Below, piece after piece: positions 12,001-15,000 of a stretch of 51,815 nucleotides of DNA (its first letter is position 1; each line of letters begins with the position of its first letter). The stretch lies in IMG/VR virus record IMGVR_UViG_2563366933_000008; one strand, given 5' to 3'. The position numbers were made by a program. The stretch is from a virus. Taxonomy: Duplodnaviria; Heunggongvirae; Uroviricota; Caudoviricetes.

Positions 12001-15000
12001 TCTCGCTGTGTTGCATCGGAAAAGTGATTGCCGGAGGCGCTTATGGCAAAAGTATTTACACAAGAAGAGCGGGAAAAAATCAAGGGACAGGTTGTTGAGC
12101 TAGTACGCCGGAGTGGGCGCGAGACGTTACGGCAACTGGAAGCCAAGACAGGTGCGACAAGATATCTGATGAGCGTTCTCGCCAGAGAGCTGGTTGCCAG
12201 TGGCGATGTATACAACTCTGGCTACGGGTTATTCCCGTCTGAACAGGCTCGTAAGGACTGGCAAAATGCCCGCAAAAAACTATCTAGGGCAAAGGTGAAG
12301 AAACCATCTGTGGTTGATCCGGACCTTATCTGGTCATTACCTGACGGAGAAATACGTCGTTATGACAGGCACCAAAACATAATTTGCTGTGAGTGCCGGA
12401 AGAGCGAAGTTATGCAGCGCATACTGGCATTTTATCAGAGAAATTTTCGTTATTTATAGACGTTACTCGATTAAAGAGCATTAGTTCAGATGTGAATTGA
12501 CATTTTCACGGCACAGGATTGAGCTAGCGTGGTTGTCTGCTTTGTGTCAAAAGCAGATATTACCAGATTTAGACATCTATTCCCGATAGCCCTGCTCTGA
12601 TGCTACACTCTGTGCTATTTTCATGACCCCAATAAAAATATTTATGACTATTGCTGATTTCAAACGGCCTAAATTGGAGCTCCCAAACGGGGCAAACAAA
12701 CTACTACTGCACTCTTGCTGTGCTCCATGTTCCGGTGAAGTGATGGAGGCGCTTCAGGCCTCGGGAATCGACTATACCATCTTTTTCTACAACCCGAACA
12801 TTCATCCTCAGAAAGAGTATTTAATTCGTAAGGATGAGAATATTCGCTTTGCTGAACAACACGGCGTGCCATTTATTGATGCTGATTACGACACAGACAA
12901 CTGGTTTGAACGTGCCAAAGGAATGGAATGGGAGCCCGAGAGGGGGATCCGTTGTACCATGTGTTTTGACATGCGTTTTGAGCGGACAGCGCTGTACGCT
13001 GCTGAAAATGGTTTCAGTGTGATCAGCAGTTCACTGGGCATTTCACGCTGGAAAAATATGCAGCAGGTTAACGACTGTGGGCGGCGAGCCGTCGCGCATT
13101 ATCCGGGCATGGTGTACTGGGATTATAACTGGCGCAAGCAGGGCGGCTCGTCCCGCATGATTGAAATCAGCAAGCGCGAAAAATTCTATCAGCAGGAATA
13201 TTGTGGCTGTGTGTATTCTCTGCGCGATACCAATCTACACCGCAAATCTCAGGGACGCCCTCTTATCAAAATTGGTCAACTCCACTACGGTAAAGAAGAG
13301 AAGGAGTGATTTTATGGAGCACCTTTCTTATTGATTTCATATTGGCGAGGTAGCGGGAGTTAAGTAAAATTGCTGCGGGTGCTTGAGGCTATCTGCCTCA
13401 GGCATGAACACCAAAAGGCAGATAGAGAAAAGCCCCAGTTAACATTACGCGTCCTGCAAGACGCTTAACATTAATCTGAGGCTCAATCTATGCTGAACAC
13501 ATGTAGGTTAGCCTCTTACGTGCCGAAAGGCAAGGAGAAGCAGGCTATGAAGCAGCAAAAGGCGATGTTAATCGCCCTGATCGTCATCTGTTTAACCGTC
13601 ATAGTGACGGCACTGGTAACGAGGAAAGACCTCTGCGAGGTACGAATCCGAACCGGGCAGACGGAGGTCGCTGTCTTCACAGCTTACGAACCTGAGGAGT
13701 AAGAGACCGGGCGGGAGAGTAATCTCCCGCCACCTCTGATATGTCAGGCATCCTCAACGCACCCGCACTTAACCCGCTTCGGCGGGTTTTTTCACGTACT
13801 GTGGTTGTGAATACGATTGGTATTAGGCTATGCTAACAACATTAGCCTGACTAATTTTGTATTGACTTAATTTTTGTTAAAGAACAGGACGGAGAAGTAA
13901 GGGTACACCAATGAGCTACGCACTAAAAAAACACCCGCGATTGACTATTCCCCCTCGCGATAAAAGCGTTGTGGCAGCTCCGCGCCCGGCTATCGATGAA
14001 AATTGCACTCATCGTGAGCAGGTGAAAAATGCTTTCGATTTCGGTTTTTCTCGTTACGAGAAGGCAATGGAAGATCTTTCAAAAGTGTAATGATGGGTAT
14101 TGTGCTCTATGGCTGAGATTGTTGAAGGAGTGCACTACCTTTCGGTTGATGATCTTACTGAAATTAATCGCCTTTTAATTGAGCTTCAAACACCAGATGA
14201 ACCTGTTGGTGTGCTGAGTGTTGATAATTTAAGTTCTTCTCAGTCTCGTCCCAGTATGGTTCGATGGTATGAGCAAACCAACGACATGTTTGTACTGGCA
14301 TCGGTATTGATTGAAAGTCTGATTCAGAATCATCCATTTGCCAATGCAAACAAGCGCACAGCAATGATGGCTGGTGCGGTTTTTTTATTGTTAAATGGAT
14401 ACGAATTAACCGCACCAGGCGATGAAGTTGTGGAGATGGCTGAGGGGCTGGCCTGTAAAATTTATACACGAGAAGAGCTTGAAAATTGGTTGTGTTATTG
14501 GTCTCGTGCGTATGACAGTCGGGAATTATGTAAAACAGGCGCAACTATTGTTTTGTATGAAACTATCAAGCTTAAAATAGAACAGCAAAACTAAAGATGC
14601 TTCTAATGAAAACCCGCTTCGGCGGGTTTTTTGTTGCGTGCTGAATATGCAGGGTGAAAAATAACCATATATTTGATTATATACACAGCCAAAAATAAAA
14701 GTCATTGTACCTGCACATTAAACAATCAAATATACGACGTGAAATAAATATTTTTCAGATTAATATTTTTGTCTCTATGTGGATATAACCTTTTGTACTT
14801 ATAAACCTGGAGGCATCGTGGAAAAAATAAAGAAACTATTTAGTAGCAAATACGCAGTCATACGTCGTGATGACCTGTCAGTTATAGTCGAAATGGATTA
14901 CTTCCCTGAAACCCCAAAATCAATGATGTATCGTAATGGTCGAAAGGCAATTTTTTTACCGATGAGGGTAAGTGACATTATGGGAAATGATAAACTGCTG

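Follow-up and report, generated by a model that had tools for sequence, protein, structure and literature searches.

Why should a temperate phage of Escherichia coli carry a gene for the last step of queuosine (Q) synthesis, a step for which the host has its own enzyme, QueG? The question is raised by queH, a gene in IMG/VR record IMGVR_UViG_2563366933_000008 (51,815 nucleotides (nt); hereafter the window, the whole stretch of DNA analysed), which is a complete Rac-like lambdoid prophage integrated beside ttcA. We found that the product of this gene is a full-length member of the QueH family and that its prophage copies are under strong purifying selection. The identification itself is not new, RefSeq already naming the gene 'epoxyqueuosine reductase QueH', but the prophage context of QueH seems to be unstudied: a literature search on QueH with phages or prophages returned no paper on phage-borne QueH, and Hutinet et al. 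2019 found no QueA, QueG or QueH homologues in the viruses that they surveyed (PMC6884629). The explanation that we favour, and regard as probable, is that of a genuine and active QueH, captured as a cassette and carried as a moron, which gives the lysogen a second, B12-independent route to Q.

QueH turns the epoxide of epoxyqueuosine (oQ34) into the cyclopentene of Q34, the last step of the queuosine pathway, and the substrates of Q34 modification are tRNA-Asp, -Asn, -His and -Tyr (PMC5372724, PMC9508795). The E. coli pathway to oQ, through tgt and queA, is established in the literature (PMC5372724, PMC9508795). QueH is a non-orthologous replacement of QueG in other bacteria (PMC5372724, citing Zallot 2017). 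The QueG step of E. coli needs cobalamin, and oQ is reported to accumulate when B12 is missing (PMC4646009, with reference to Frey 1988 and Miles 2011); this species has four enzymes that depend on a cobamide, QueG among them (PMC11841063). The original prediction had taken E. coli to use QueG for this step, which agrees with PMC4646009 and with the intact queG that we found in strain 042.

The features on which the identification of the gene depends are the following (residue numbers refer to the 228-amino-acid (aa) open reading frame (ORF) throughout):

12644..13309, + strand: queH coding sequence (CDS), 221 aa, RefSeq WP_021554705.1, supported by Pfam, PDB, fold and the ratio of non-synonymous to synonymous substitution rates (dN/dS)
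12623..12643, + strand: in-frame 5' extension of 7 codons, unconserved and probably untranslated
12716..12730, + strand: CCAPC motif (C32, C33, C36), within residues 27-37
12953..12964, + strand: CTMC, a CxxC motif (C111, C114; residues 111-114), invariant
13202..13210, + strand: CGC codons with the Cys codons of C194 and C196, within EYCGC (residues 192-196), invariant

The ORF that had been claimed at 12623-13309 is intact: it runs uninterrupted for 228 aa from an ATG start on the + strand (12623..13309), and the ORFs that overlap it in other frames are all short and none is supported. Its product had been taken for a DUF208/QueH-like protein, a reading that is confirmed by Pfam PF02677 (QueH/DUF208), which it matches at 1.9e-65 and 220.6 bits (curated cut-off, 23.5 bits) over profile positions 1-174 of 175. 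The only sequence matches in the PDB are structures of Thermotoga maritima QueH (7LC5, 7LC7, 9DEU, 9DCO, 9D86), with residues 27-203 aligned to residues 4-178 of that protein at 5e-22. The start at 12623 is another matter. The first seven codons read MTPIKIF in the window copy and MNLINTF in other prophage copies, and they are absent from the prophage copy L010 and from chromosomal homologues; both PGAP (the Prokaryotic Genome Annotation Pipeline) and the chromosomal homologues start the gene at M8, where conservation also begins. Since the first seven codons vary or are missing and conservation begins only at M8, we place the CDS at 12644..13309, with M8 (12644), 21 nt 3' of 12623, as the most likely true start, and the start first proposed is probably wrong.

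The cysteines tell the same story as the profile. All three elements that the original prediction had recognised as the QueH signature, the motif containing CCAPC, CTMC and EYCGC, are present, and in an alignment of 37 diverse QueH proteins, including that of T. maritima and reaching down to 33-40% identity, six cysteines (C32, C33, C111, C114, C194 and C196) never vary, nor do N59, E65, R69, E106, R110, K144, Q191, G195 and S199. At C36 at least 90% of the 37 also have Cys, T. maritima being the exception. As to whether these cysteines fall on the metal-binding positions of QueH, the HMMER alignment pairs all six invariant ones with cysteines of the T. maritima enzyme (C32/C33 with C9/C10, C111/C114 with C87/C90 and C194/C196 with C169/C171), for which mutants are held in the PDB at D13 (D13N, in 9DCO) and at C9 (in 9D86). 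For an AlphaFold2 model built from 36 homologues (predicted local distance difference test score 79.1, predicted template-modelling score 0.80), the five best Foldseek matches are all QueH structures, with target-normalised template-modelling (TM) scores of 0.83-0.85, the best (0.85) to 7LC7/7LC5, and root-mean-square deviations of about 2.5 A for four of them and 3.9 A for 9DEU. The next matches are generic adenine nucleotide alpha-hydrolase enzymes (TtuA, LarE; E about 1e-4). In PHROGs the protein falls in phrog_3217, of 'unknown function', which matches residues 41-228 (window 12743-13306), that is, from the internal Met41. Because the profile starts only at residue 41 it is without CCAPC; its members were possibly called from the internal Met41, and the family could be relabelled QueH.

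Where the gene came from is suggested by its limits, by the sequence in front of it and by its closest relatives. Two further features are needed here:

12594..13313, + strand: queH cassette of 720 bp, putatively captured, with a leader of about 50 nt, the CDS and the 4 nt that follow its stop codon
12601..12609, + strand (-10 hexamer 12604-12609): predicted extended -10 element TGCTACACT, from comparison of upstream regions

Nucleotide homology to the chromosomal queH of Scandinavium covers window positions 12594-13313, and L010, the most divergent prophage copy (91% nt identity), matches 12595-13313, the same limits, with the downstream sequence splitting into at least two contexts right after TGAtttt. 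Because the limits are common to L010 and Scandinavium and the divergence downstream is immediate, we treat the 720 bp as one unit. It behaves as a discrete insert, with sharp limits, presence or absence among related prophages and occurrence in at least three lambdoid backbones. Within its leader, TGCTACACT fits the extended -10 pattern TGnTAnnnT, and TGCTACA(A/C)T is found in all prophage copies, beginning 39-45 nt 5' of the ATG. At the same position the chromosomal copies of Scandinavium and Kluyvera have TGCTACAAT and those of Enterobacter have TGCTACACT, CGCTACAAT or TGCTACCCT; the motif also occurs in Symbiopectobacterium, and the flanks of these chromosomal copies are otherwise unalignable. 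To judge from this comparison, the phage would have acquired queH with the core of the native promoter still attached, with a putative transcription start near 12616, and the retention of that core makes transcription without phage promoters plausible. Upstream of queH, Rfam gave no riboswitch (preQ1 or cobalamin), and the strong Rfam matches near the gene are sok and tRNAs only. On the 5' side of the cassette lies a perfect 8-bp inverted repeat (12536-12557: TCTGCTTT, a 6-nt loop, AAAGCAGA), kept in several prophage copies and followed by no T-run, which may serve in processing, in termination or in the binding of a protein.

Outside Escherichia, the nearest relatives of the protein are the QueH proteins of Scandinavium (92% aa identity), Kluyvera (91%) and Enterobacter (89-90%), followed by Symbiopectobacterium (87%) and Erwinia (86%). 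Those of Erwinia, Photorhabdus and Providencia are 80-86% identical to the prophage protein and those of Sphingomonas and Stenotrophomonas still 75-80%, so that identity to single-copy chromosomal QueH across the Proteobacteria spans 75-92%, and its height in such distant genera indicates that QueH evolves slowly and is widely conserved. The chromosomal genes whose surroundings were read lie among non-phage genes: an Erwinia-like organism has the order purL-queH-glrK-glrR-glnB-hmp-glyA, the Scandinavium gene is accompanied by genes for a short-chain dehydrogenase, a metallo-beta-lactamase and Hcp, and the Enterobacter gene has a chorismate mutase, a GGDEF protein and a pseudouridine synthase for neighbours. 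The DUF977 and hok neighbours of the prophage gene are missing in 79 of 80 species-level queH loci, Escherichia albertii being the sole exception. No distinct phage clade with substitutions of its own is evident, and by these comparisons the prophage gene appears to be a QueH ortholog, taken from a chromosomal queH of the Enterobacteriaceae, and not a divergent paralogue. In comparisons with Erwinia and Photorhabdus the synonymous sites have reached saturation, which means either that the capture was not very recent or that the true donor has not been sampled.

The original prediction had called a phage-borne QueH-like gene unusual, and in E. coli it is not rare. A queH CDS is present in 995 of 5,426 complete E. 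coli genomes (18%; 985 of the carriers at 80% coverage or more), nearly always single-copy and chromosomal, and in 40 of 40 sampled rows the annotation reads 'epoxyqueuosine reductase QueH'. Carriers include O25b:H4-ST131 (sequence type 131), O157:H7 Z1811, HUSEC2011, the avian pathogenic strain APEC O1 and the enteroaggregative strain EAEC 042. Over 35 kb the window itself matches E. coli K56-43-un (NZ_CP053079.1) at 99.8% identity, and its queH region is identical in E. coli 042. In the window and in L010 the cassette sits in a Rac-like prophage at ttcA; the ST131 copy (L009) belongs to an HK97-capsid prophage next to tRNA-Ser/mtfA and L011 to a Qin/DicB-like prophage. A further copy is in HannyBb, a phage isolated from bird faeces in which the gene is labelled hypothetical and which is the only isolated phage with a close copy. 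In all five copies inspected queH follows a DUF977 gene, and in four of the five hokD stands shortly 3' of it, sometimes non-adjacent, with none annotated in L010. Related prophages in three further strains (M11, M15 and M19) match the window only 3' of the cassette and are without queH, and the Rac prophage of K-12 is also without it. In IMG/VR a relative is encoded on 216 viral contigs; the 80 best of these are all near-identical to the window gene and are apparently prophage predictions, since most bear isolate-genome identifiers.

Selection has kept these copies. Among five prophage and phage copies dN/dS is 0.02-0.11 at synonymous divergence (dS) up to 0.45 (Nei-Gojobori), the window and L010 differing by 42 synonymous and 11 non-synonymous changes, and the replacements among prophage copies spare every invariant column. 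A few copies (H127 and H122) are truncated or bear indels.

How these observations fit together can be put as a sequence of events. A lambdoid phage would have captured the 720 bp from the chromosome of a relative within the Enterobacteriaceae, and the native extended -10 element would have been retained. As a moron, queH would then have settled where the replication and nin regions meet, and the cassette would since have moved between lambdoid prophages via recombination. The prophage protein would be a cobalamin-independent iron-sulfur enzyme that turns oQ into Q; QueH, as Li et al. are said to have found in 2021, uses a [4Fe-4S] cluster and an adjacent iron and no cobalamin. E. coli must import cobalamin. 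Because QueG depends on that import, the lysogen would gain a second, B12-independent Q route, and since QueG is cobalamin-dependent and strain 042 combines an intact queG with a prophage queH identical to that of the window, the most likely role is to back up Q maturation in the lysogen independently of B12. Enzymatic activity, use of the promoter and expression in the lysogen are predicted, as is a benefit to fitness, which is speculative.

Several points weigh against this explanation. No model of the NCBIfam library matches the protein, so that the PGAP name must stem from another rule. The T. maritima enzyme has Asp13 where the prophage protein has Cys36, Cys being the family majority. 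Neither ATG is preceded by a Shine-Dalgarno sequence, in the window copy or in chromosomal homologues, and generic scans gave no -35/-10 promoter on the + strand 5' of queH and no intrinsic terminator after it. We also know of no physiological difference between oQ-tRNA and Q-tRNA.

One could also suppose that queH serves the phage: transcribed with the early-right operon after induction, it would keep Q34 complete during lytic growth and tune the decoding of NAC and NAU codons in late genes. The gene is co-oriented with the replication-to-nin genes and directly follows them, and no terminator was detected that would separate it from them. HannyBb, a phage known as an isolate, has a copy, and according to a review Q increases late during infection by Shewanella phage 1/4 (PMC13191261). 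A benefit to the phage is compatible with one to the lysogen, differing from it in timing and beneficiary; we nevertheless consider it unlikely as the explanation, because the native extended -10 has been kept, which argues for phage-independent transcription, and because the prophage of K56-43-un has frameshifted sieB and tail-tube genes and many other carriers look partly degraded, with queH intact and under purifying selection, a pattern that fits a benefit to the host. Very unlikely, in our judgement, is that queH contributes nothing and, once acquired through illegitimate recombination, has spread with successful prophages as a neutral passenger. The nin regions of prophages are indeed rich in accessory cargo, the K-12 Rac prophage and those of M11, M15 and M19 do without the gene, and a few copies (H127 and H122) are damaged, but dN/dS is about 0.05 at a dS of 0.4 with all catalytic residues kept, and the cassette has identical boundaries in at least three unrelated prophage backbones.

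Hardly credible, finally, is a neofunctionalised QueH-like enzyme that acts in 7-deazaguanine modification of phage DNA, or in defence or anti-defence. Phages do use 7-deazaguanine chemistry in their DNA (PMC6884629), QueC-family proteins are reported to have been recruited into defence systems (PMC13639016), and queH lies among toxin-antitoxin modules (hok/sok, Doc). Yet the protein is about 90% identical to chromosomal Enterobacteriaceae QueH in non-phage neighbourhoods, its conserved positions are without phage-specific substitutions, and PADLOC gave no defence-system match for QueH or its neighbours. The partner genes are missing too, as the original prediction had noted for dpdA and queC, queD or queE: none of dpdA, tgt, queC, queD, queE and folE is annotated in the 99.8%-identical K56-43-un prophage, and in the tail region, where the window diverges, Pfam gave no dpdA, tgt or preQ0-synthesis genes either. 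With no dpdA, tgt or preQ0-synthesis genes, a phage cluster for 7-deazaguanine DNA modification was rejected. The back-up of Q maturation in the lysogen by a captured QueH remains the explanation that we prefer.

The setting of the gene in the prophage is as follows, from left to right:

Left: intR, xisR, ralR, recT, recE, kilR, sieB, repressor/cro-like genes
Next: ydaT, ydaU, ydaV, DUF1627, DUF977, queH, hok/sok, Doc-family toxin
Then: DUF1367/DUF1364/DUF1133, tRNA-Thr, tRNA-Gly, lysis genes, trkG
Right: terminase, head and tail genes, finally cdtABC
12028..12459, + strand: DUF977 (YdaW-like) phage gene, 5' neighbour of queH (RefSeq, identical locus)
13377..13702, + strand: hok/sok type I toxin-antitoxin, 3' neighbour of queH (Rfam RF01794, 119.6 bits; hokD annotation), with the sok model match at 13377-13552 and hokD at 13547-13702
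16887-16962: tRNA-Thr (UGU)
16966-17040: tRNA-Gly (UCC)

A 1.1-kb query from this region matches 4,310 of the 5,426 E. coli genomes because it includes the hok/sok segment. Further 3' come a small ORF (13911-14090) and, after it, the gene for a toxin of the death-on-curing (Doc) family (14109-14594); this insert of about 0.9 kb (13911-14594) is missing from the prophage of E. coli 042, where the flanking gene order is equal, and the whole 2.8-kb stretch is matched in only 9 genomes. After the Doc gene, at 14543-14633, lie sub-threshold Rfam matches to rsmX (34 bits) and istR (27.5 bits), which are probably a structured 3' end or a terminator and not these small RNAs. The two phage tRNAs, to which the original prediction had drawn attention beside queH, do exist, separated by a 3-nt gap and 3' of the DUF1133 gene, and the queH-bearing ST131 prophage has the same pair plus a tRNA-Ile. 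Their relevance to queH did not stand: neither UGU nor UCC is a GUN anticodon, so these tRNAs bear no queuosine, and a tie between them and queH was rejected.

Toward the right end, the tail-tip (J C-terminus) and tail-fibre region, 38500-46200, is the sole part of the window that diverges from K56-43-un (81-96% identical or absent, against 99.8% elsewhere), which is consistent with recombinational exchange of host-range modules. At the end itself are cdtA, cdtB and cdtC (cytolethal distending toxin type IV, 47026-49126, + strand), by which the prophage is also a toxin-converting element, followed by genes for an alpha/beta hydrolase and an omptin-family protease (49196-50680 and 50865-51815, both on the - strand).

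What the gene may mean for its hosts can be put more tentatively. It is possible, though less likely than not, that the prophage gene brings about lysogenic conversion of the state of tRNA modification, making Q34 maturation independent of imported cobalamin. If so, about one in five E. coli strains would be affected, among them ST131, O104:H4 HUSEC2011, APEC O1 and EAEC 042, and carriers would keep Q, and not oQ, under B12 scarcity or when uptake through BtuB is shut down, as in the competitive gut or in the presence of BtuB-targeting phages and colicins; decoding of NAU and NAC codons, biofilm and virulence traits or phage yield could then change measurably. E. coli is the reference organism for queuosine and is treated as QueG-only and B12-dependent for the last step. 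Given that 18% of its genomes carry a mobile, non-homologous and B12-independent reductase, the balance of Q and oQ under B12 limitation may vary by strain, and conclusions from K-12, whose Rac remnant is without the cassette, may not transfer. The locus is also a clean case of a phage carrying a tRNA enzyme of the late queuosine pathway. Its practical importance is modest, as the gene is already correctly named in RefSeq.

Compared with known systems, the prophage protein has the same full-length domain, six invariant cysteines, invariant polar residues and fold as QueH (IPR003828), and its basic C-terminal tail of about 25 residues is a trait of the proteobacterial QueH subfamily and not specific to phages; known QueH genes, in contrast, are chromosomal, whereas the window copy is on a temperate phage or prophage. 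With QueG (YjeS), with which it coexists in 042, it shares the predicted reaction and the same four tRNAs, but QueG is cobalamin- and [4Fe-4S]-dependent and QueH is without a cobalamin domain. The two are non-homologous, the fold of QueH being adenine nucleotide alpha-hydrolase-like (PMC5372724, PMC4646009). Pairs of this kind are not confined to E. coli lysogens: Staphylococcus aureus has both QueG and QueH, expressed differently (PMC13443448), likewise a redundant pair with differing cofactor needs. In E. coli, unlike that species and the one named next, the second reductase is mobile on prophages and variable between strains (18% of genomes). Acinetobacter baylyi ADP1, too, reportedly carries both enzymes, a report ascribed to Zallot in 2017. 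The nearest parallel on the phage side is that of the lambdoid morons lom and bor, which are likewise discrete inserts between phage modules and polymorphic among related prophages; the queH cassette, which may have a promoter of its own, differs from lambdoid morons and auxiliary metabolic genes in being without a detected terminator and in its cargo, which is a tRNA-modification enzyme.

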